Shown: positions 2,360-19,949 of the stretch, piece by piece | How positions within the stretch are numbered: position 1 is the first letter of the stretch | Layout: every line of letters begins with the position of its first letter | Virus record (IMG/VR): IMGVR_UViG_2778261128_000006 | Length of the DNA stretch: 22,569 bases | Direction: 5' to 3' (one strand) | DNA from: a virus | Taxonomy: Duplodnaviria; Heunggongvirae; Uroviricota; Caudoviricetes | The notes under the pieces: generated by a model | Databases searched by the model: none | The model's input: only the letters and a program-made list of their open reading frames with translations | What the model was told of the DNA's origin: nothing | Made by a program: the position numbers and the translations under genes

Positions 2360-2869
2360 ATGTTTGATTACCAAGTTTCCAAACATCCACATTTTGATGA
2401 AGCCTGTCGTGCATTCGCATTGCGCCACAACCTGGTGCAACTGGCAGAACGTGCTGGCATGAATGTGCAGATTCTGCGGAACAAGTTGAACCCAGCGCAA
2501 CCTCATTTATTAACCGCACCAGAAATCTGGCTGCTTACCGATCTGACTGAAGATTCAACGCTGGTAGATGGTTTTCTGGCTCAGATTCACTGCCTGCCAT
2601 GCGTACCGATTAATGAGGTGGCAAAAGAGAAACTGCCACATTACGTCATGAGTGCAACCGCAGAGATCGGGCGTGTTGCTGCAGGTGCGGTATCTGGCGA
2701 TGTAAAAACCAGTGCAGGTCGTCGTGATGCTATCAGCAGCATTAACTCTGTAACACGACTGATGGCGTTGGCTGCTGTTTCATTGCAGGCCCGTTTACAG
2801 GCTAACCCTGCGATGGCGAGTGCAGTTGATACCGTGACTGGCCTCGGTGCTTCATTCGGTTTGCTGTGA
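2360..2869 (+). CDS. cII: CII-like phage regulatory protein
   Basis: 169 aa from ATG at 2360 (the track ORF starts earlier at a TTG), about the length of 186 CII as I recall it; position after apl; RBS-like AGAGG upstream. Confidence 0.7.
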
Positions 2870-2876
2870 GGTGCTT

Positions 2877-3077
2877 ATGCTGACGAAAGAACCATCATTT
2901 GCATCGCTGCTGGTAAAGCAAAGCCCGGCAATGCACTACGGTCACGGCTGGATCATGGGTGAGGATGGAAAACGCTGGCATCCGTGCCGTTCACAAGATG
3001 AATTGCTGGCAGAACTATCTACGAAAAAACGGGGGAACAAATGGCTATTGAAGGCGCTGCGGCGACTGTTCCATTAA
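2877..3077 (+). CDS. Hypothetical small early protein
   Basis: ATG at 2877 inside track ORF 2847-3077; tightly packed in early operon. Confidence 0.45.
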   Translation: MLTKEPSFASLLVKQSPAMHYGHGWIMGEDGKRWHPCRSQDELLAELSTKKRGNKWLLKALRRLFH

Positions 3078-3382
3078 GACCCGGTGAACGCCTGAATGGA
3101 CTTAATCATATTGCGGAGTTAAGGGCGAAAGTTTTTGGTTTGAATATTGAGTCAGAGCTTGAGCGGTTTATTAAAGATATGCGTGATCCACGGGATATCA
3201 ATAATGAACAAAATAAACGGGCACTGGCTGCCATATTCTTTATGGCAAAAATTCCAGCTGAACGTCATAGCATCAGCATTAATGAGCTGACCACTGACGA
3301 AAAGCGGGAGTTGATTAAAGCAATGAATCATTTTCGTGCAGTGGTGAGCTTATTTCCCAGACGGCTAACCATGCCGAATTAA
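3041..3382 (+). CDS. Hypothetical early protein (113 aa)
   Basis: ORF in early operon; overlaps previous gene end as is typical for phage operons. Confidence 0.5.
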   Translation: MAIEGAAATVPLRPGERLNGLNHIAELRAKVFGLNIESELERFIKDMRDPRDINNEQNKRALAAIFFMAKIPAERHSISINELTTDEKRELIKAMNHFRAVVSLFPRRLTMPN

Positions 3383-3449
3383 CCAACTAATGAAATTAAT
3401 GGCGTAAACCCGCCGGGCATCCCTTTATCTAAATTCAGGAGAATTGCTT

Positions 3450-3683
3450 ATGCGTAATATTGAAACCCTCACGACCAAAACCGGACCGGATGATGCAGGT
3501 CTTAATCTTTTACTGACAGAGGCTCGTCTGGAAGAACGCCGGGCAAGGGCTGAAGCAATGGCTGCTCGCCTCGATAGCCTGGCGTGTCATATCACCTCCC
3601 GCCAGCTAAACCACGTCGAAGCGGCAGAACTGCTGCGTGTGACTGCTGAAGCAATCCAGAACGAAGCGCAGGAGATCCACTGA
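3450..3683 (+). CDS. Hypothetical small early protein (about 77 aa)
   Basis: ATG at 3450 preceded by GGAG; stop overlaps start of next gene (ATGA at 3680-3686). Confidence 0.5.
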   Translation: MRNIETLTTKTGPDDAGLNLLLTEARLEERRARAEAMAARLDSLACHITSRQLNHVEAAELLRVTAEAIQNEAQEIH

Positions 3684-3910
3684 TGGCTGATGCAATGGAT
3701 CTCGTACAGCAGCGCGTTGAAGAAGAACGCCAACGCCATATCCGTGCTGCCCGTGCCAAAACGCCGGGCGTGTCCCGCGTGCTTTGCGTTGAGTGTGAAG
3801 CGCCAATTCCGCCAGCACGCCGCCGTGCCATTCCTGGAGTGCAGCTTTGCATTACCTGCCAGGAAATCGCAGAGCTGAAAGGCAAACATTACAACGGAGG
3901 TGCTGTATGA
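3683..3910 (+). CDS. TraR/DksA-family C4 zinc-finger protein
   Basis: 75 aa with CxxC...CxxC (CVECEAP...CITCQE), typical of phage TraR-like zinc finger proteins found upstream of gene A in P2-like phages. Confidence 0.65.
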   Translation: MADAMDLVQQRVEEERQRHIRAARAKTPGVSRVLCVECEAPIPPARRRAIPGVQLCITCQEIAELKGKHYNGGAV

Positions 3911-4764
3911 GCACCATCCTGAAATGGGCGGGTAATAAAACCGCCATTATGTCCGAACTGAAAAAATACCTTCCTGCTGGCCCGCGACTGGTTGAACCTT
4001 TCGCGGGTTCTTGTGCTGTGATGATGGCGACGGATTACCCCAGCTATCTGGTTGCGGATATTAATCCTGATTTAATCAACCTCTATAAAAAGATTGCCGC
4101 TGATTGCGAAGCGTTTATATCTCGTGCCAAAGTTTTATTTGAGGAAGCAAACAGTGAGCTGGCTTATTACAACATAAGACAGGAGTTTAATTACTCAACT
4201 GAAATTACTGATTTCATGAAGGCGATATATTTCCTGTATCTCAATCGTCACGGTTACCGTGGTTTATGTCGCTATAACAAGAGCGGGTATTTCAACATTC
4301 CCTACGGTAATTATAAAAATCCGTATTTCCCTGAAAAAGAAATTCGCGCATTTGCAGAGAAAGCCCAGCGGGCAACGTTTATCTGCGCGAGCTTTGATGA
4401 AACGCTGGCGATGCTGCAGGTGGGGGATGTGGTGTATTGCGATCCGCCGTATGACGGTACGTTTTCCGGCTATCACACTGATGGTTTCACTGAAGATGAC
4501 CAGTATCACCTGGCATCCATTCTTGAACATCGGTCATCAGAAGGACATCCGGTCATTGTTTCTAACAATGACACATCCCTGATTCGTTCGCTGTATCGCA
4601 ATTTTACTCACCACTATATCAAGGCAAAACGCAGCATCGGCGTGTCAGCTGGCGAGGGTAAATCTGCAACAGAAATCATTGCTGTTTCCGGGCCGAGCTG
4701 CTGGTTGGGATTTGATCCTTCGCGTGGCGTGGATAGTTCTGCCGTGTACGGAGTGTGTGTATGA
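3907..4764 (+). CDS. dam: DNA N6-adenine methyltransferase (Dam-like, D12 class)
   Basis: N-terminal KWAGNK...FAGS AdoMet-binding motif and catalytic DPPY motif ([10 protein letters not shown]); ATG at 3907 after GGAGG. Confidence 0.85.
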
Positions 4765-7175
4765 GTCATGACGATATGAACTATTGCAGCGGCTTTAACG
4801 AGGCCGCCGCAGCATTTTCATGGAACGGCTCGAAAAAGGCCATTAACCCTTATCTGGACCCGGCGGAAGTTGCGCCGGAGTCTGCACTTTCAAACCTGAT
4901 CACTCTGTACGCTGCCGATAACGAGCAGGAACAACTGCGCCGCGAGGCACTGAGTGAGCAGGTCTGGGAGCGTTATTTCTTTAATGAATCCCGTGATCCT
5001 GTCCAGCGCGAAATGGAGCAGGATAAGCTCATTAGCCGGGCAAAGCTGGCGCATGAGCAGCAGCGTTTTAATCCGGACATGGTCATTCTGGCGGACGTAA
5101 ACGCCCAGCCTTCCCATATCAGCAAGCCGCTGATGCAACGTATTGAATACTTCAGCAGCCTGGGCAGGCCAAAGGCTTATTCCCGCTATTTGCGTGAGAC
5201 GATTAAGCCATGTCTGGAGCGACTGGATTGTGTACGTGACAGTCAGCTATCTGTTTCTTTCCGTTTTATGGCAAGCCATCAAGGGCTGGAGGGTCTGCTG
5301 ATCCTGCCTGAAATGAGCCAGGATCAGGTGAAACGCCTGTCCACCCTGGTAGCAGCGCATATGAGCATGTGTCTTGAGGACGCTTGTGGTGATTTGTATG
5401 CCACCGATGACGTTAAGCCAGAAGAAATCCGCAAGACATGGGAAAAGGTGGCAGCGGAAACCCTGCGTCTGGATGTTATCCCGCCTGCGTTTGAGAAACT
5501 TCGTCGGAAAATAAACCGCCGCAAACCAGTGCTCTATGAACTCATCCCGGGTTCGCTGGCGCGTATGTTGTGTGCCGACTGGTGGTATCGGAAATTATGG
5601 AAGATGCGTTGCGAATGGCGGGAAGAGCAGTTGCGTGCTGTCTGCCTGGTCAGCAAAAAAGCATCCCCCTATGTCAGCTATGAAGCCGTGATGCATAAAC
5701 GTGAGCAGCGCCGTAAGTCGCTGGAGTTTTTTCGTTCTCATGAACTGGTGAACGAAGACGGCGACACGCTGGATATGGAAGATGTGGTAAACGCCAGCAG
5801 CAGCAACCCGGCGCATCGCCGCAATGAGATGATGGCCTGTGTTAAAGGTCTGGAGCTTATCGCGGAAATGCGCAGTGACTGTGCCGTTTTCTACACTATC
5901 ACCTGTCCGTCGCGTTTCCATTCCACGCTCAATAACGGCAGACCAAACCCGACCTGGACAAACGCGACGGTAAGACAAAGTAGCGATTATCTGGTCGGCA
6001 TGTTTGCTGCATTTCGTAAGGCTATGCATAAAGCCGAGTTGCGCTGGTATGGCGTGCGGGTAGCTGAGCCGCATCATGACGGTACTGTGCACTGGCATCT
6101 CATGTGTTTCATGCGTAAAAAAGACCGCCGCGCCATCACTGCATTACTGCGTAAGTTTGCCATCCGTGAAGACCGCGAGGAGCTGGGCAATAACACGGGA
6201 CCACGCTTTAAGTCTGAGCTGATAAACCCGCGCAAAGGTACGCCAACAAGCTATATCGCGAAATACATCAGTAAGAACATTGACGGGCGTGGTCTGGCTG
6301 GGGAGATCAGCAAGGAAACGGGTAAATCCCTGCGTGATAACGCTGAATACGTTAATGCCTGGGCGTCTCTGCATCGTGTTCAGCAATTCCGCTTCTTTGG
6401 CATTCCGGGGCGTCAGGCTTACCGTGAACTGCGATTGCTGGCTGGTCAGGCGGCAAGGCAACAGGGTGACAAAAAAGCAGGTGCGCCGGTACTGGATAAC
6501 CCGCGTCTTGATGCAATCCTGGCTGCTGCTGATGCTGGTTGTTTTGCCACCTACATCATGAAGCAGGGCGGCGTACTGGTTCCCCGCAAATATCACCTCA
6601 TCAGAACTGCTTATGAAATCAACGAAGAACCGACCGCATATGGCGATCACGGTATTCGTATTTATGGCATCTGGTCACCCATTGCAGAGGGCAAGATCTG
6701 CACTCATGCGGTGAAGTGGAAAATGGTTCGTAAGGCCGTTGACGTTCAGGAGGCGGCAGCCGACCAGGGCGCTTGCGCCCCTTGGACTCGTGGCAATAAC
6801 TGTCCCCTTGCTGAAAATTTGAACCAACAAGGGAAAGACAAATCAGCTGATGGGGACTCCAGAACGGATATTACCCGTATGAATGACAAGGAGTTGCACA
6901 ATTACCTGCACAGTATGAGCAAAAAAGAGCGCCGGGAACTGGCTGCAAGGTTACGCCAGGTGAAACCGAAACGGCGTAAAGACTACAAACAGCGAATTAC
7001 AGACCATCAGCGACAGCAGCTCGTCTATGAACTGAAGTCCAGGGGATTTGATGGCAGCGAGAAAGAAGTCGATTTGCTCCTTCGCGGCGGCAGTATTCCG
7101 TCAGGAGCAGGCCTGCGTATCTTCTATCGGAACCAGCGTCTGAAGGAAGATGATAAGTGGCGGAACCTGTATTAA
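4755..7175 (+). CDS. A: P2 gpA-type replication initiation endonuclease
   Basis: About 800-aa ORF at the position of gene A in P2/186; rolling-circle initiator-like region around [10 protein letters not shown] with downstream tyrosines (YIAKYISK); start may be ATG 4755 or 4761. Confidence 0.85.
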
Positions 7176-8760: not shown

Positions 8761-9684
8761 ATGAATAAAAAATTTACCGATGAGCAGCAACAACAGCTTA
8801 TAGGACATCTCACAAAGAAAGGCTTCTATCGAGGAGCTAATATTAAAATAACCATTTTTCTATGTGGTGGTGACGTTGCTAATCATCAATCTTGGCGTCA
8901 TCAATTATCACAATTTTTAGCAAAGTTCAGTGATGTTGATATATTTTATCCAGAAGATCTATTTGATGATCTTTTGGCTGGTCAAGGGCAGCATAGCCTT
9001 TTAAGTTTAGAAAATATTCTGGCTGAAGCTGTCGATGTAATAATTTTATTTCCTGAAAGTCCGGGGTCTTTCACAGAGCTTGGTGCGTTCTCTAATAATG
9101 AAAACTTAAGGAGAAAGTTGATTTGCATTCAAGATGCAAAATTTAAATCAAAACGTAGCTTTATTAACTATGGTCCTGTTCGCCTGTTGCGTAAGTTTAA
9201 TTCAAAATCTGTTTTGCGTTGTAGTTCAAATGAACTAAAAGAAATGTGTGATTCATCTATTGATGTTGCCAGAAAATTACGATTATATAAAAAATTAATG
9301 GCATCTATTAAGAAGGTTAGGAAAGAAAATAAAGTATCAAAAGATATTGGAAATATATTATACGCAGAGCGGTTTCTATTGCCTTGTATCTATTTACTGG
9401 ATAGTGTCAACTACCGCACACTGTGTGAACTAGCTTTTAAAGCGATAAAGCAAGATGATGTTTTATCTAAAATTATTGTTAGATCCGTTGTTTCTCGTCT
9501 AATAAATGAACGAAAAATACTTCAAATGACTGATGGTTATCAGGTCACTGCTTTGGGGGCTAGCTATGTTAGGAGCGTCTTTGATAGAAAGACACTTGAC
9601 CGATTGCGGCTTGAGATTATGAATTTTGAAAACCGTAGAAAATCAACATTTAACTATGATAAGATTCCGTATGCGCACCCTTAG
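8761..9684 (+). CDS. Retron effector, nucleoside 2-deoxyribosyltransferase-like (NDT) protein with C-terminal basic domain
   Basis: 307-aa AT-rich ORF directly upstream of msr-msd and RT; Rossmann-like N-terminal region (KITIFLCGG ... VIILFPESPGSFTELG); its 3' end overlaps the a1 repeat; matches the Retron-Eco1 effector as I recall it. Confidence 0.8.
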   Translation: MNKKFTDEQQQQLIGHLTKKGFYRGANIKITIFLCGGDVANHQSWRHQLSQFLAKFSDVDIFYPEDLFDDLLAGQGQHSLLSLENILAEAVDVIILFPESPGSFTELGAFSNNENLRRKLICIQDAKFKSKRSFINYGPVRLLRKFNSKSVLRCSSNELKEMCDSSIDVARKLRLYKKLMASIKKVRKENKVSKDIGNILYAERFLLPCIYLLDSVNYRTLCELAFKAIKQDDVLSKIIVRSVVSRLINERKILQMTDGYQVTALGASYVRSVFDRKTLDRLRLEIMNFENRRKSTFNYDKIPYAHP

Positions 9685-9840
9685 CGAGAGGTTTATCATT
9701 AAGGTCAACCTCTGGATGTTGTTTCGGCATCCTGCATTGAATCTGAGTTACTGTCTGTTTTCCTTGTTGGAACGGAGAGCATCGCCTGATGCTCTCCGAG
9801 CCAACCAGGAAACCCGTTTTTTCTGACGTAAGGGTGCGCA
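9672..9840 (+). ncRNA. msr-msd: Retron msr-msd non-coding RNA (Ec86/Eco1-type) flanked by a1/a2 inverted repeats
   Basis: a1 TGCGCACCCTTA at 9672-9683 and a2 TAAGGGTGCGCA at 9829-9840 are perfect inverted repeats; long msd hairpin 9760-9811 (24-bp arms around GCCT loop); sequence matches the Ec86 ncRNA as I remember it from retron editing constructs. Confidence 0.85.
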
Positions 9841-9846
9841 ACTTTC

Positions 9847-10809
9847 ATGAAATCCGCTGAATATTTGAACACTTTTAGATTGAGAAATCTCGGCCTACCT
9901 GTCATGAACAATTTGCATGACATGTCTAAGGCGACTCGCATATCTGTTGAAACACTTCGGTTGTTAATCTATACAGCTGATTTTCGCTATAGGATCTACA
10001 CTGTAGAAAAGAAAGGCCCAGAGAAGAGAATGAGAACCATTTACCAACCTTCTCGAGAACTTAAAGCCTTACAAGGATGGGTTCTACGTAACATTTTAGA
10101 TAAACTGTCGTCATCTCCTTTTTCTATTGGATTTGAAAAGCACCAATCTATTTTGAATAATGCTACCCCGCATATTGGGGCAAACTTTATACTGAATATT
10201 GATTTGGAGGATTTTTTCCCAAGTTTAACTGCTAACAAAGTTTTTGGAGTGTTCCATTCTCTTGGTTATAATCGACTAATATCTTCAGTTTTGACAAAAA
10301 TATGTTGTTATAAAAATCTGCTACCACAAGGTGCTCCATCATCACCTAAATTAGCTAATCTAATATGTTCTAAACTTGATTATCGTATTCAGGGTTATGC
10401 AGGTAGTCGGGGCTTGATATATACGAGATATGCCGATGATCTCACCTTATCTGCACAGTCTATGAAAAAGGTTGTTAAAGCACGTGATTTTTTATTTTCT
10501 ATAATCCCAAGTGAAGGATTGGTTATTAACTCAAAAAAAACTTGTATTAGTGGGCCTCGTAGTCAGAGGAAAGTTACAGGTTTAGTTATTTCACAAGAGA
10601 AAGTTGGGATAGGTAGAGAAAAATATAAAGAAATTAGAGCAAAGATACATCATATATTTTGCGGTAAGTCTTCTGAGATAGAACACGTTAGGGGATGGTT
10701 GTCATTTATTTTAAGTGTGGATTCAAAAAGCCATAGGAGATTAATAACTTATATTAGCAAATTAGAAAAAAAATATGGAAAGAACCCTTTAAATAAAGCG
10801 AAGACCTAA
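9847..10809 (+). CDS. ret: Retron reverse transcriptase (Ec86/Eco1-type, 320 aa)
   Basis: RT motifs including YADD (RYADDLTLS) and retron-specific VTG (RKVTGLVI); length and sequence match Ec86 RT from memory. Confidence 0.95.
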   Translation: MKSAEYLNTFRLRNLGLPVMNNLHDMSKATRISVETLRLLIYTADFRYRIYTVEKKGPEKRMRTIYQPSRELKALQGWVLRNILDKLSSSPFSIGFEKHQSILNNATPHIGANFILNIDLEDFFPSLTANKVFGVFHSLGYNRLISSVLTKICCYKNLLPQGAPSSPKLANLICSKLDYRIQGYAGSRGLIYTRYADDLTLSAQSMKKVVKARDFLFSIIPSEGLVINSKKTCISGPRSQRKVTGLVISQEKVGIGREKYKEIRAKIHHIFCGKSSEIEHVRGWLSFILSVDSKSHRRLITYISKLEKKYGKNPLNKAKT

Positions 10810-13760: not shown

Positions 13761-14513
13761 ATGACAGTGAAAGCAAAGCGTTTTCGCATCGGGGTGGAAG
13801 GTGCCACCACCGACGGACGCGAAATCCAGCGTGAATGGCTGGAACAGATGGCAGCCAGCTACAACCCGGCGGTGTATACCGCGCTGATTAACCTTGAGCA
13901 CATCAAGTCTTATCTGCCGGACAGCACCTTTAACCGCTACGGCAAGGTGACGGCGCTGTTTGCTGAGGAAATCACGGAAGGTCCGCTGGCAGGCAAGATG
14001 GCGCTGTATGCCGACGTTGAGCCAACGGAGTCCCTGGTGGAACTGGTGAAAAAAGGCCAGAAATTATTCACCTCTATGGAAGTCAGCCCGAAGTTCGCTG
14101 ATACGGGCAAAGCCTACCTGGTCGGCCTGGCTGCCACTGATGACCCTGCCAGTCTGGGCACTGAAATGCTGACATTCAGCGCCAGTGCAGCCCATAACCC
14201 GCTGGCAAACCGCAAGCAGAATCCTGCCAATCTCTTTACCGCTGCAGAGGAAACGGTGATCGAACTGGAGGAAGTCCAGGACGACAAACCGTCCCTGTTT
14301 TCCCGCGTCACGGCGCTGTTCACCAAAAAAGAGCAGTCCGATGACGCCCGGTTCTCTGATGTGCATAAGGCCGTGGAGCTGGTCGCCACTGAGCAGCAAA
14401 ACCTGAGCGCGCGAACCGAAAAATCTCTGTCTGAGCAGGAAGAACGCCTGTCTGAACTGGAGTCTGCTCTGCAGAAGCAGCAACGGGCAATGCCTGTAGT
14501 TCCACACTGGTGA
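13761..14513 (+). CDS. O: Capsid scaffold protein (P2 gpO-like), C-terminally truncated by deletion
   Basis: N-terminal 220 aa resemble P2 gpO (FRIGVEG...INLEH...YLVGLAATDDPASLGTE); ORF ends abruptly and is followed in another frame by an endolysin C-terminus. Confidence 0.75.
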   Translation: MTVKAKRFRIGVEGATTDGREIQREWLEQMAASYNPAVYTALINLEHIKSYLPDSTFNRYGKVTALFAEEITEGPLAGKMALYADVEPTESLVELVKKGQKLFTSMEVSPKFADTGKAYLVGLAATDDPASLGTEMLTFSASAAHNPLANRKQNPANLFTAAEETVIELEEVQDDKPSLFSRVTALFTKKEQSDDARFSDVHKAVELVATEQQNLSARTEKSLSEQEERLSELESALQKQQRAMPVVPHW

Positions 14514-14653
14514 AATTGCTCAATCAGCGGCGCTGGGCAGATGCGTGCCGACAGTTGCCGCGCTGGGTTTATGTAAAAGGTGTGTTTAATCAGGGGCTGG
14601 ATAACCGCCGTGCGCGGGAGATGGCCTGGTGCCTTAAAGGAGCTGGACTATGA
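14510..14653 (+). pseudogene. Remnant C-terminus of phage endolysin (P2 gpK / lambda R-like lysozyme), no start codon
   Basis: Frame translation ...KLLNQRRWADACRQLPRWVYVKGVFNQGLDNRRAREMAWCLKGAGL-stop, overlapping lysB start in ATGA; genes N, M, L, X, Y and most of K absent. Confidence 0.6.
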
Positions 14654-15605: not shown

Positions 15606-16044
15606 ACTGCAGAAGGTGGACGACTGGCTTAGTGCCTTACTGGCGAATCTGGAACCAGTCGCAAGAAGCCGCATGATGCGCCAGCTGGCGCAGGAACTGC
15701 GCCGGACACAGCAGCAGAATATCAGGATGCAGCGCAATCCAGATGGCAGCAGTTATGAACCGCGCAAGGTCACGGCGCGCAGTAAAAAAGGCCGCATCAA
15801 ACGTCAGATGTTTGCAAAGCTGCGCACCACCAAATACCTGAAAACCGCCGCCAGCGCCGACTCTGCCAGCGTACAGTTTGAAAGTAAGGTGCAGCGCATT
15901 GCCCGCGTTCACCATTATGGCCTGCGCGATCGCGTCAGCCGCAAAGGACCGGAAGTGCGTTACGCAGAGCGTCGTTTGTTGGGTCTTAATGGTGAGTCTT
16001 ACGTTCTAACTCGTGATATATTGAATAGATTCCTTCTGTCTTGA
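15598..16044 (+). CDS. S: Tail completion / virion morphogenesis protein (P2 gpS-like), C-terminal end runs into AT-rich foreign DNA
   Basis: GTG start overlapping R stop; sequence composition changes near 15990, so last about 18 codons are probably not native. Confidence 0.65.
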   Translation: MAELQKVDDWLSALLANLEPVARSRMMRQLAQELRRTQQQNIRMQRNPDGSSYEPRKVTARSKKGRIKRQMFAKLRTTKYLKTAASADSASVQFESKVQRIARVHHYGLRDRVSRKGPEVRYAERRLLGLNGESYVLTRDILNRFLLS

Positions 16045-16792
16045 ATTCACCATATGCCCAATGAATTGCATTTTTTTGTTCAGTCAGAATATATTTCCTA
16101 ACTTTTTTAGAATAGTGAATGGTCAGTATAAAACCCAAAGAAATCCATAATAGAATAAATATGGTTGTTGGGGCAAAGGAATAGATAAAGAATTTGTCTT
16201 TAACGAAATTCTTGACTTCTTCATCAATGTAAGTATTCCCTTCATCAGTGGTTAGTAGTTTACAAAGAATTTCTTTATGTTCGATAGTTAATGATTTGTA
16301 CTTCTCTGTACTGGCAGAGGATGACTCTTCGCAATCATCTTTTGATATTTCCCAATCAGGAGTGGTTAATATTGTAGCTGCAGTCGCCAGTTTTTTTGAC
16401 ATATAAAATGATTCACCGGACTTTATCCAATAAAGCAATGTGCTATTTGGTGGGGTTCTAATGGCTTGGATGAAAACTGGACCAAAAATATAAATTGCAC
16501 ACAAAAAAAGAAGTGAAAAGAGAACCGTGATTGATTTTTCAGCCCATGTGATAGTAGGCAGCCTTTTTAATGATATTCGTATAAGAAAAAAATTTAATAT
16601 AAACGCAGGTATTCCTGATTTTTTCAAAATTACATCATGAGATTTTCTATATTTGAATAGTGCTCTTATAACTATCGTCACCAAAGTTATAACAGCTCCA
16701 ATAATGGAAATCCATGCGGCAAGTGCCGCTGCCGGGGTGTTTAAAAATTCAGCATTAAATATATTAGAACTTATTGGATTCATAACACTCAT
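15986..16792 (-). CDS. Multi-pass membrane protein, hypothetical (AT-rich insertion)
   Basis: 268-aa ORF in a very AT-rich block; at least 4 hydrophobic helices (e.g. AALAAWISIIGAVITLVTIVI, ITVLFSLLFLCAIYIFGPVFI, TTIFILLWISLGFILTI); no recognisable enzymatic motif. Confidence 0.6.
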   Translation of the reverse strand: MSVMNPISSNIFNAEFLNTPAAALAAWISIIGAVITLVTIVIRALFKYRKSHDVILKKSGIPAFILNFFLIRISLKRLPTITWAEKSITVLFSLLFLCAIYIFGPVFIQAIRTPPNSTLLYWIKSGESFYMSKKLATAATILTTPDWEISKDDCEESSSASTEKYKSLTIEHKEILCKLLTTDEGNTYIDEEVKNFVKDKFFIYSFAPTTIFILLWISLGFILTIHYSKKVRKYILTEQKNAIHWAYGEFKTEGIYSIYHELERKTHH

Positions 16793-16895
16793 TTATCCAC
16801 CTATTGGTTGTTTTTTATCCTTTTATCAATTTGTACCATCGATACCACAATTTGCAAGAAGTTATAAACAAGTTTTCAGCTGTCATCATATATCT

Positions 16896-17621
16896 ATGAA
16901 CGCACAACTAACCGAAATCATGCGCCTTATCACCAATCTGATCCGCATAGGTGTAGTCACCGAAGTGGACCGGGAAAACTGGCTTTGTCGGGTGAAAACG
17001 GGCGACCTTGAAACCAACTGGATCAGCTGGCTGACGCTGCGCGCGGGTAATGCCCGCACATGGTGGCGACCATCGGAAGGTGAGCAGGTGGTGCTGCTGA
17101 GTCTGGGCGGCAATCTGGAGACTGCCTTTGCGCTGCCCGCTGTCTATTCGAATCAGTTCGCACCACCGTCGACGTCGGCGGACGCCTGCGTGACAGAACA
17201 TCCTGACGGTGGCTGGTTTGAATACGAACCCGCCACCGGGCGCTGGTATGTCAGGGGCATCAAATCAATGGTCATTGAGGCCGCTGATAACATCACCATG
17301 AAAACCAGTGAGTTTGTACTGGAGGCTGACCGCACGCGCATTAACAGCGAAGTGGTGATCAATGGTGGCGTTATTCCTTCACCCACGCATGAAGAACTTA
17401 TTGAAATTTCTGAGTCAAAAAGACAGCTATTAATTAATCAGGCCAACGAATACATGAACAGTAAACAATGGCCCGGTAAAGCCGCTATTGGTCGTCTGAA
17501 AGGCGAGGAACTGGCGCAATATAATTCGTGGCTGGATTATCTGGACGCACTGGAGCTGGTTGATACCTCCAGTGTGCCAGATATTGAATGGCCTACGCCT
17601 CCGGCAGTTCAGGCCAGATGA
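16896..17621 (+). pseudogene. Chimeric ORF: N-terminus of baseplate spike gpV fused to C-terminus of a tail fibre assembly protein (deletion junction)
   Basis: Starts MNAQLTEIMRLITNLIRIGVV...RTWW.PS.GEQV like P2 gpV; ends ...WLDYLDALELVDTSSVPDIEWPTPP like Tfa C-termini (compare the convergent Tfa at 17593-18195). Confidence 0.65.
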
Positions 17622-18195
17622 CATCCGGCGCGGTGCTGGTATCTGTTGCCGTCACCGCGTCAATGTAATCCAGCACAATGTTAAGTCGGGTGGTTTCTGC
17701 CTGCATCAGCTTCCGCCCGGCCTGCAATTTCAGCTGAATCAGACTAATGGAAGCCATTGCTGCATCAATCAGTGACTGGCGTTGTGCTTCTGCCACTTCT
17801 ACTGCGGCACCGTGTTGTGCCTCAGTATCTGTCACCCATTTCTCACCATCCCATTTATCGTATGGCGTTAACGGTGCGATAGTGGTTGTATTTTCAGGGT
17901 AATCACCCGGAGCTGTGATTTCTTTGGCATCTCCCGTTTCGGTGTTATAGACGATTTCACCGCGATGATCTGGCACATATTCCCATGAGTTAAAATCTGT
18001 AGAACGGCAGATTGCATAATCAGCCTTATGTGTGCCAGGGGCATCTAAACAGGAACATGCCGGAATGCCGACACCAACGGAAAGATATTCATTTGAAGTG
18101 GAAATATATTCCCGTGTTTCACCATCATAGTTATAGACAGGAATATTTCCCGCCTTCGTGGCAATAAGCTCGCTATTTAATACAGCGTTATCCAT
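17593..18195 (-). CDS. tfa: Tail fibre assembly protein (Tfa / gpG / U-prime type)
   Basis: 200 aa; C-terminus LDYIDAVTATDTSTAPDVIWPELP typical of Tfa chaperones; convergent and overlapping with the other Tfa C-terminus as in invertible G/C/P segments. Confidence 0.75.
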   Translation of the reverse strand: MDNAVLNSELIATKAGNIPVYNYDGETREYISTSNEYLSVGVGIPACSCLDAPGTHKADYAICRSTDFNSWEYVPDHRGEIVYNTETGDAKEITAPGDYPENTTTIAPLTPYDKWDGEKWVTDTEAQHGAAVEVAEAQRQSLIDAAMASISLIQLKLQAGRKLMQAETTRLNIVLDYIDAVTATDTSTAPDVIWPELPEA

Positions 18196-18737
18196 TATGC
18201 AGCCCTCACGATATAGTTAAATGCAATATTCCGTGGGCGGGTTTCATTTACCCCATATGCTGTTGTTCTCTGATTCCCGACAAAATATCCATTTGGATTA
18301 GAGGATACAGAATAATCATCAAAATCAAGTGGGCTATCAGCACCCGGCGTCAGGCTTGCAATATATCCTCTTCCCATAACTTCTGATGCTGGTATTTCTT
18401 TTGTACGATAATCACTGACTCTGAAGAGCTGTCCCTGGTGGGTGTGTGATTCCACTCCTCCATTCTGAAGACTTAGCAAGGCACGTCCAGCATCAATACC
18501 ACGCCCATCATCCCAGCCACGAATAAACTCACCACGTAAATCAGGCAATTTATTTGTCGGATAAGCCTTTGCCAGTTCCGGGTATTCTTCAGCAGAAAAA
18601 GCTGCACCATTGCATTTCAGCCAGCCTGTAGGCGGAGTGGCTGAAGGCCACGGAACAGGCACCCCAACAGGTAATGCAGAGTCTTCTCCCAAACCAACGT
18701 TTAAGAAAATGCAGCGATTACGACTAACTGGCATCAT
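18195..18737 (-). CDS. Tail fibre variable C-terminal segment (Sv-prime-like) of an invertible tail-fibre cassette; lacks constant N-terminal part
   Basis: 180 aa; begins inside a Din-type crossover site; resembles variable tail-fibre tips of Mu / P1 / e14 type cassettes. Confidence 0.65.
   Translation of the reverse strand: MMPVSRNRCIFLNVGLGEDSALPVGVPVPWPSATPPTGWLKCNGAAFSAEEYPELAKAYPTNKLPDLRGEFIRGWDDGRGIDAGRALLSLQNGGVESHTHQGQLFRVSDYRTKEIPASEVMGRGYIASLTPGADSPLDFDDYSVSSNPNGYFVGNQRTTAYGVNETRPRNIAFNYIVRAA
18684..18707. other. Din-family invertase crossover site (gix/hix/pix-like), orphan copy
   Basis: TTCTCCCAAACC AA CGTTTAAGAA: two imperfect 11-bp inverted half-sites around a central AA, matching the TTATC-AAACC-WW-GGTTT-GATAA pattern; located at the 5' end of the Sv-prime ORF, adjacent to the invertase gene. 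Confidence 0.55.
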
Positions 18738-18758
18738 CCCCGATTTTTATTCAAGGAG

Positions 18759-19040
18759 ATGATCATGCTTATTGGCTATGTACGCGTGTCAACAAATGAC
18801 CAGAACACCGATTTGCAACGTAGTGCGCTGAACTGCGCGGGATGTGAGCGGATTTTTGAGGATAAAATCAGCGGCACTAAGTCCGACAGACCGGGGCTGA
18901 AAAAACTGCTCAGGACACTATCGGCAGGAGACACGCTGGTTGTCTGGAAGCTGGACAGGTTGGGGCGCAGTATGCGGCATCTTGTTACGCTGATAGAAGA
19001 GTTACCCGCGAACCTGCGAAGAAAGAAAGCACCACGGTGA
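18759..19040 (+). pseudogene. Serine DNA invertase (Hin/Gin/Pin/Cin family), truncated after about 80 aa
   Basis: N-terminus MLIGYVRVSTNDQNTDLQR...LVVWKLDRLGRSMRHLV is the resolvase catalytic domain with Ser in VRVST; ORF ends prematurely and runs into a gpD fragment. Confidence 0.8.
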
Positions 19041-19405
19041 AGCGTAAGCGCAGAACTAAGAAGCAGAAGAAAGAGCCGGAAGCGAAGCAGGGCGATTACC
19101 TGGTGGGTACGGATGAAAACGTGCTGGTACTTAATCGCACTTATGCCAACCGGAGCAACGCCGAACGAGCGGCGAAAATGCAGTGGGAACGCCTGCAACG
19201 CGGCGTTGCGTCATTCTCGCTACAACTGGCGGAAGGGCGGGCAGATCTCTACACGGAAATGCCAGTGAAAGTCAGTGGCTTTAAACAGCCGATAGATGAT
19301 GCGGAATGGACTATTACCACCCTGACGCATACTGTCAGCCCGGATAACGGTTTTACGACCAGTCTGGAGCTTGAAGTGAAGATTGATGATTTCGAAATGG
19401 AATGA
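19037..19405 (+). pseudogene. C-terminal fragment of P2 gpD-like tail protein (late control gene D)
   Basis: No ATG (track start is GTG); C-terminal sequence ...LELEVKIDDFEME typical of gpD end; located immediately before ogr as in P2. Confidence 0.65.
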
Positions 19406-19495
19406 TTCTTCGCAATGGAGAACTTTTAAGTTCTCAAAATGGAATAATGCGGTATCATTATTGTGAATTTAGCAAAAATGGGGAGAACTCGAAAA

Positions 19496-19714
19496 ATGAT
19501 GATTTGCCCACTGTGTGGAAGTGCCGCCCATACTCGCAGCAGTTTTCAGGTATCTTCATTGACCAAAGAGCGTTACAACCAGTGCCAGAACATTAACTGC
19601 AGCCATACTTTTGTTACTCATGAAACTTTTGTTCGTTCGATTGCAACGCCAAAAGAGTCAAATCCGGTTCAGCCGCATCCAATGAAATCAGGACAGGTGG
19701 CGCTCTCTCTTTGA
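19496..19714 (+). CDS. ogr: Ogr/Delta-type zinc-finger late transcription activator
   Basis: 72 aa from ATG 19496 (GGGGAG RBS); CPLCG...C.NINCSHTF zinc-finger pattern as in P2 Ogr (CPLCQ...CQNVNCSATF). Confidence 0.8.
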   Translation: MMICPLCGSAAHTRSSFQVSSLTKERYNQCQNINCSHTFVTHETFVRSIATPKESNPVQPHPMKSGQVALSL

Positions 19715-19792
19715 CGCTGCCGCCATTTTGTCGCCATCGTTAAAAAACAGTGCTTCTAACATCATGATTTTAAAGAGCATAAATTTCAGGCA

Positions 19793-19837
19793 ACAAAAAA
19801 CCCATCAACCTTGAACCGAAATGGCGGGGTTGATGGG
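19793..19837 (-). terminator. Rho-independent terminator (minus strand), probably host ybjL terminator near the prophage right boundary
   Basis: CCCATCAACC ... GGTTGATGGG 10-bp stem, followed on the minus strand by TTTTTTGTTG. Confidence 0.45.
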
Positions 19838-19949
19838 CTCCACAAAATGGGGACATCAAAGAAAAGCAGTGGCACTAATTAAGACTGATGCCCTGCGGAA
19901 AAGTTCTGCGGTTGTGCAAAAAAATTTCATTTTCAGGGCAACTTCAGTT

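Follow-up and report, generated by a model that had tools for sequence, protein, structure and literature searches.

Probable non-functional remnant of a Din-family invertible tail-fibre segment in the P2/186-like prophage of Escherichia coli B

The window analysed here, a whole stretch of 22,569 nucleotides, lies in the known defective P2/186-like prophage that E. coli B carries between rcdA and ybjL. Pfam searches and the annotation of the identical REL606 and BL21 sequence identify the P2-type hallmark genes (int, CI, CII, A, portal Q, terminase P, scaffold O, the lysis genes, R, S, V ... D and ogr), which makes the element a P2/186-like (Peduoviridae) prophage, and it is defective because stretches have been lost at several places inside it (capsid N to K, FI to D'). 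Phage P2 Hy dis presumably arose from this E. coli B prophage. Direct comparison shows that the window is identical to REL606 (NC_012967.1, 881132-907460) at 100% over 22.6 kb, minus REL606 positions 898505-902264, and the same 3760-bp gap appears when the window is set against BL21(DE3). What we read as the remnant of a Pin/Gin-type invertible tail-fibre segment spans positions 17372-19040 (Table 1). A literature search for a published description of this tail-fibre cassette turned up only the E. coli B version of the prophage, named 'Rybb*B', which carries retron Ec86 (PMC3032704).

Table 1. Features of the tail-fibre region, in window coordinates
Feature	Position	Strand	Basis
V'-'Tfa fusion ORF, 241 aa	16896..17621	+	gpV codons 1-159 and Tfa codons ~64-145, in frame; Phage_base_V and Caudo_TAP (Pfam)
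Deletion junction	17372..17373	none	2-bp 'TA' microhomology in both parental flanks; mapped against BL21 and REL606
Tfa chaperone, C-terminal ~82 codons (of 145 aa)	17372..17621	+	Caudo_TAP; matches REL606 tfa (L011 20944-21381) at 100% from nucleotide 191 on
Intact tfaE-like tail-fibre assembly gene, 200 aa	17593..18195	-	Full-profile Caudo_TAP; 89% identical to K-12 TfaE; tfaE in B-genome annotation
Alternative fibre C-terminus (Sv'/StfE-type), 180-aa ORF	18195..18737	-	Pfam Collar; alignment to e14 StfE
Surviving right-hand 26-bp crossover site, TTCTCCCAAACC-AA-CGTTTAAGAAAA	18684..18709	none	26-mer scan; 25/26 against e14 and pro483 right sites
Serine invertase pseudogene, codons 1-80	18765..19004	+	Pfam Resolvase positions 2-89/145; RefSeq pseudogene in BL21 and REL606
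Fis-dependent recombinational enhancer, expected position	18795..18875	none	Inferred from Hin/Gin spacing and location in the invertase gene
gpD C-terminal fragment fused to the invertase stump, about residues 269-387/387, ~130 codons	19004..19405	+	C-terminal end of the Phage_GPD profile; comparison with pro483 D
ogr-like late activator, final prophage gene before ybjL	19496..19714	+	Pfam Ogr_Delta and annotation

The plus-strand Tfa fragment is the left remnant of the invertible segment, the chaperone of the formerly expressed fibre tip, and it converges with the tfaE-like gene such that their 3' ends overlap by 29 bp, an overlap found identically in e14, pro483 and REL606. The original prediction of two convergent Tfa C-termini is thus borne out as to the convergent genes, both of which carry Caudo_TAP, but not as to the minus-strand gene, which is complete. 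Similarly, the elements predicted to lie from 17593 rightwards are all there, although most of the plus-strand fragment falls to the left of that position. Next to tfaE, the predicted Sv-type fibre tip is present as an ORF whose first ~90 residues are near-identical to e14 StfE; its genuine coding part runs from ~18696, the crossover core, down to 18195, and the 13 upstream codons are a fortuitous extension outside the segment. One fibre-tip/chaperone set, Sv' with TfaE on the minus strand, is complete, whereas the other is reduced to the last 82 Tfa codons, its own fibre tip having been deleted. In all, 1325 bp of the original ~2088 bp are retained, the right ~63% of the segment. The tfaE/Sv' module is locked in the silent orientation. 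A consensus scan of 16700-19900 for promoters and terminators returned fewer promoter-like sites than shuffled controls and none reading leftward into the Sv' and tfaE ORFs, weak negative evidence that the module has no evident means of expression; probably nothing in the relic is expressed.

The left boundary of the remnant is a deletion junction. According to the REL606 annotation, the lost 3760 bp comprise the last 33 codons of baseplate gene V, W, J, I, the whole of H and the first 63 codons of tfa. Gene H (L011 19320-20942 in REL606), with a Phage_tail_fib N-terminus and a Gp53-like_C domain, supplies the constant N-terminal part of the fibre. In cassettes of the Mu G, P1 C or e14 P type this part and its promoter stand outside the segment, and reading enters it across a crossover site; here the gene lies wholly within the deleted block, which also carries the left crossover site inside H. 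Both the partner site and the constant fibre gene had been predicted to be deleted, and both are found in this block in REL606 and BL21. Because the flanks share only the 2-bp TA at 17372/17373, the deletion was an illegitimate one.

The surviving crossover site is where it had been predicted: the gix/hix-like sequence TTCTCCCAAACCAACGTTTAAGAA sits exactly at 18684-18707, and the full site extends two positions further, to 18709. Its counterpart in e14, the right repeat, is a site at which inversion was shown experimentally (PMC12529663). A search with the 24-mer at ≤3 mismatches gives one match in the window, with zero expected by chance. We found no second site in the window by this search, by inverted-repeat detection or by a 26-mer consensus scan at ≤9 mismatches, nor an intact invertase, the two features that had been named as arguing against a relic. 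The 26-mer scan is sensitive enough to recover both of the divergent Mu gix sites, which have 7 mismatches to its symmetric consensus (built around the inner half-site shared by pix sites), and it reports exactly two inverted sites in each of BL21, pro483, the plasmid-prophage CP019275, Mu, e14 and the phage of the O157:H43 strain T22. A Din-family inversion system requires two crossover sites flanking the segment; the window has one.

The parental arrangement can be read from BL21 and REL606, where both sites are present, as expected if the region derives from a switch of the Mu G, P1 C or e14 P type. The left site, TTCTCGCATACC-TT-GGTTTGGGAGAT, lies inside H at codon ~346 (BL21 position L001 11225-11250), and the right site, which adjoins the invertase gene, is the site seen in the window. 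Between them they bound a segment of ~2088 bp that holds Sv-tfa and, inverted, tfaE-Sv'. H reads ...AGLLAYLGLGD... across the left site and the minus-strand ORF reads ...FLNVGLGED... across the right one; the frames match, so an inversion would yield an in-frame fusion of the alternative tip to the constant part of H.

Adjacent to the site lies the predicted serine invertase gene, which is truncated as had been proposed. The ORF at 18765-19040 (91 aa, starting MLIGYVRVSTNDQ) encodes invertase residues 1-80, after which it runs out of frame into gpD and stops at 19040. Over these 80 residues it is 86% identical to the pro483 invertase, 88% to PinE and 76% to Gin, and it aligns to residues 1-80 of the 193 of Gin (PDB 4m6f, 3uj3). 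In the 3uj3 structure the position aligned to Ser9 is Ala. Din-family invertases are proteins of ~184-197 aa consisting of an N-terminal catalytic domain with the active-site Ser, helix E and a C-terminal HTH. The stump retains the catalytic Ser9 but not helix E or the C-terminal HTH domain, so it falls short of a full-length invertase; given what is established for serine recombinases, such a protein can neither bind a site nor dimerise there. The gpD fragment, which corresponds to about residues 269-382 of 387 in the D protein of pro483, is likewise annotated as a pseudogene in RefSeq. In pro483 coordinates, the invertase-gpD fusion is the scar of a ~6.3-kb deletion of FI-FII-E-T-U-D', and the truncation is common to all 44 complete B-lineage genomes. 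In the Hin system, the invertasome has to be assembled from a pair of 26-bp sites and an enhancer of 65 bp, which is bound by Fis and lies ~100 bp away from one of the sites (PMC3798978). The relic retains 240 bp from the 5' end of the invertase gene, a stretch whose DNA sequence is well conserved relative to pinE and gin, and by analogy with Hin and Gin it probably retains the enhancer as well.

The anatomy of the locus, with its two deletions, single site and truncated invertase, is best explained as the decayed and now inactive remainder of an invertible tail-fibre segment of the Din family (Pin/Gin/Cin type) in the P2/186-like prophage of E. coli B, a reading in which we have high confidence and which no observation contradicts. 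Taking pro483 as a model of the ancestor, a serine invertase encoded immediately to the right of the segment would have recombined two inverted 26-bp sites, one in H and one adjoining the invertase gene. With each inversion the constant N-terminal part of H would have been fused to one or the other of two C-termini, each with its own Tfa, and host range would have switched; such inversion probably did take place in the ancestor. The older of two illegitimate deletions, found in every B strain, then linked codon 80 of the invertase gene to the final ~130 codons of gpD. With it went the dimerisation helix and DNA-binding domain of the enzyme, as well as the genes for tail sheath, tube and tape measure. 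The younger 3760-bp deletion joined gpV codon 159 to tfa codon 64, with the loss of W, J, I, H and the left site. What this leaves is a tfaE/StfE-type module locked in its silent orientation beside an orphan site and an invertase stump. The relative age of the deletions follows from their distribution among the sequences compared: the V-tfa deletion is specific to the OP50-type strain, and the invertase-gpD deletion, shared by all B strains, is the older.

Several observations bear on when the switch stopped. In all 44 complete B-lineage genomes, which retain two sites and are consensus assemblies, the segment is found at one place per genome, at 100% identity and in the same orientation. About a third of e14-carrying E. 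coli genomes, by comparison, show an inverted P segment (PMC12529663). Intact relatives of the present prophage also show both orientations: relative to pro483, the tfaE/Sv' module of the T22 phage is turned round, so that it is in the expressed orientation and continues the constant part of H. The single orientation of the 44 two-site genomes therefore indicates that the switch was already frozen after the first deletion and before the second. The second deletion took away any chance of reactivation, and since the window has one site and no invertase, inversion at the locus cannot occur. The prediction that the segment is frozen in one orientation accordingly stands, with uniformity having set in while both sites were still present.

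It had also been suggested that the orphan site could serve as a target for an invertase supplied in trans by another prophage. On this view, PinR of the Rac prophage would use the orphan site together with a distant chromosomal site, producing rare large inversions or deletions. The idea is weakly tenable in that B strains have an intact pinR, a gene of 196 aa in the Rac remnant of BL21(DE3), and in that the beginning of the invertase gene, which in Hin and Gin harbours the enhancer, is kept. There is precedent as well, as K-12 PinQ (Qin), 38% identical to PinE, inverts the e14 segment in trans (PMC12529663). PinR is itself 38% identical to PinE, and PinQ is similarly distant. Against this activity stands the need for two sites, of which the window has only one. 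Din invertases such as Hin and Gin act within a topologically defined invertasome assembled from two sites in cis and an enhancer. A scan of 50 kb around BL21 pinR at ≤10 mismatches found no pix-like site, only matches at chance level. In K-12, deletion of either repeat abolished inversion by PinQ and PinE, even when PinQ was over-produced (PMC12529663). Moreover, the 44 B genomes have both sites and pinR, yet all are in one orientation; rare PinR-driven inversion in these two-site strains may occur below the resolution of consensus assemblies. Overall, we regard a live target for PinR as very unlikely.

We assign a similarly low probability to the broader notion that the relic is not wholly inert, either because PinR binds or recombines the orphan site and enhancer region or because an ORF born of the deletions has gained a function for the host, such as blocking a phage receptor. 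Were the former true, PinR acting with a cryptic site would cause rare, programmed-looking chromosomal rearrangements in OP50. Candidates for a host function are the V'-'Tfa fusion, the 91-aa invertase stump, and the StfE-like ORF with its TfaE chaperone. In K-12, StfE2 is said to block phage receptors.

Ordinary tail-fibre mosaicism, with the 'site' conserved merely because it encodes an ...LGLGE... fibre motif, would account for its position within coding sequence. Tail-fibre modules are notoriously mosaic, and the stf-tfa of HK97 is ~92% identical to the module in the window. However, homology to the two alternative fibre tips starts precisely at the site, and the site's outer half, CGTTTAAGAAAA, lies outside genuine fibre coding but is nevertheless conserved with e14 and pro483. 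In REL606/BL21, pro483, e14 and Mu alike, an inverted partner site exists and the site is ~55 bp from the invertase start codon. Mosaicism alone is thus an exceedingly improbable account of the locus.

An assembly artefact in a strain that is truly REL606-like is just as hard to credit. In its favour, none of the 5426 complete E. coli genomes searched by megablast has the V-tfa junction; the 44 B-lineage genomes match at 100%, but only rightwards from window position 17372. On the other side, the exact 241-aa V'-'Tfa protein has been deposited in NCBI from several independent assemblies, that of E. coli OP50 among them, and six Logan contigs carry it. One of these (SRR6003517) runs across the junction and agrees with the window at 100% over 11.7 kb, and the junction itself is a clean 2-bp microhomology with no repeat collapse. 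The presence of the junction protein in independent public records shows that the 3760-bp deletion is real and strain-specific, and on the same grounds we rejected an assembly artefact or engineered gap. The window most likely comes from OP50, which is derived from E. coli B.

The remnant of an invertible segment described here descends from the Pin/Gin/Cin class of invertible host-range cassettes and departs from a functional member in three respects: its invertase is not intact, it has one site in place of two, and it lacks the constant fibre gene. Both the type of system and the prophage have been known before, and the pseudogenes are already in RefSeq; the sole new detail is the OP50-type 3760-bp deletion with its in-frame fusion ORF. 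The locus offers a textbook case of prophage decay, in which a phase-variable host-range switch has been disabled stepwise by two illegitimate deletions. Its general biological weight is small and its practical value minor. The 3760-bp deletion and the V'-'Tfa ORF provide a clean genotypic marker that separates OP50-type strains from REL606, BL21 and other B strains, and the REL606/OP50 pair constitutes a natural two-site versus one-site control for trans-acting Pin recombinases (PinR, PinQ), of the kind recently studied with e14 in K-12.

Among the closest known systems, the cassettes of REL606 and BL21 are identical to the window in sequence, in the invertase-gpD fusion and in orientation; they keep V, W, J, I, H, the complete tfa and the left crossover site, whereas the window is without these 3760 bp. 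In a separate event, BL21(DE3) has lost 3.36 kb of early genes, which are still present in the window and in REL606. Peduovirus pro483 (NC_028943), a complete P2-like phage, has its segment at the equivalent place in a P2-type late operon, with the complete order V W J I H tfa / tfa' Sv' / invertase / FI, FII, E, T, U, D. It shares ~90% DNA identity with the window over tfaE, Sv' and the 5' end of the invertase gene, and its right site agrees at 25 of 26 positions. The pro483 system is intact, with a 197-aa invertase, two sites and all tail genes, in contrast to the 80-codon invertase stump of the window.

The e14 P segment of K-12, inverted by PinE, resembles the window in the order tfa / tfaE, stfE' / site / invertase, its full layout being stfP-tfaP / tfaE-stfE' / pinE. 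The two have in common TfaE (89% identity), invertase residues 1-80 (88%), the right site (25/26) and the 29-bp overlap of the tfa genes. In e14 neither site is missing, stfP supplies the constant fibre part, PinE is full-length and inversion takes place in vivo (PMC12529663). The window, by comparison, has lost one of the sites, its constant fibre part and 60% of the invertase gene, and its host element is P2/186-like instead. The G segment of Mu with its invertase Gin follows a like logic, with S/U set against S'/U' beside an adjacent invertase gene and with 26-bp sites that have an AAACC..GGTTT core. Mu differs from the window in its fibre modules and in the outer positions of its sites, and its system is intact.

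Comparison of E. coli B genomes carrying the same prophage places the source of the window within the B lineage. BL21(DE3) lacks a 3.36-kb stretch of early genes, and a 13-bp direct repeat is found at the corresponding deletion. This stretch is kept at 100% identity in REL606, ATCC 11303 and other non-BL21 B strains, and because the window likewise retains it, the strain from which the window derives falls on the REL606-like branch of the B lineage.

The annotation reveals a further internal deletion scar in the prophage, where a lysozyme fragment without its N-terminus directly follows the scaffold gene O; since O abuts this truncated fragment, capsid genes N, M, L, X and Y have been lost. 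The 3760-bp deletion running from the end of V to the start of tfa is in frame and is predicted to yield a V'-'Tfa chimera of 241 aa, and assemblies of E. coli OP50 carry an annotation for exactly this protein.

The prophage also carries additional cargo. A retron separates the early region from the portal gene, and the ORF of its effector has no Pfam match. Between tail genes S and V is a DUF6216 gene that is antisense to both and overlaps the end of S; gene-order comparison with the complete P2-like phage pro483 found no gene at this position, and the insert looks like a moron of unassigned function.

Features described in this section, with coordinates in the sequence named
Feature	Sequence	Position	Strand	Content
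Early-gene stretch missing in BL21(DE3)	window	2697-6053		CII C-terminus, fil, DUF5347, DUF2732, TraR/DksA-like gene, Dam-type D12 methyltransferase, N-terminal two-thirds of replication gene A
Retron	window	8761-10809		St85/Ec86-family effector, reverse transcriptase (RVT_1)
Capsid-gene deletion scar	window	14483-14653
DUF6216 gene	window	15986-16792	-	membrane-protein-like, 268 aa
V'-'Tfa chimera	window	16896-17621
Rac remnant with intact pinR	BL21(DE3), NC_012971.2	23436-24234 (L009)
T22 phage crossover sites	NC_041848.1	3170-3215 and 5041-5066 (L007)

In the Rac remnant of BL21(DE3), a fragment of a tail-fibre-assembly gene adjoins the intact pinR, and no recognisable pix-like site was found in the surrounding 50 kb. 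Judged from these surroundings, the predicted PinR invertase of BL21(DE3) has no evident substrate.

T22 phage, a P2-like phage of the O157:H43 strain T22, is an intact two-site relative whose invertase is annotated at only 164 aa. Both of its crossover sites contain the same outer half, GGTATGCGAGAA. At the site adjoining the invertase, GACC comes next and after it the usual right outer half, CGTTTATGAAAA, an arrangement that gives this site the appearance of a duplicated or composite one.
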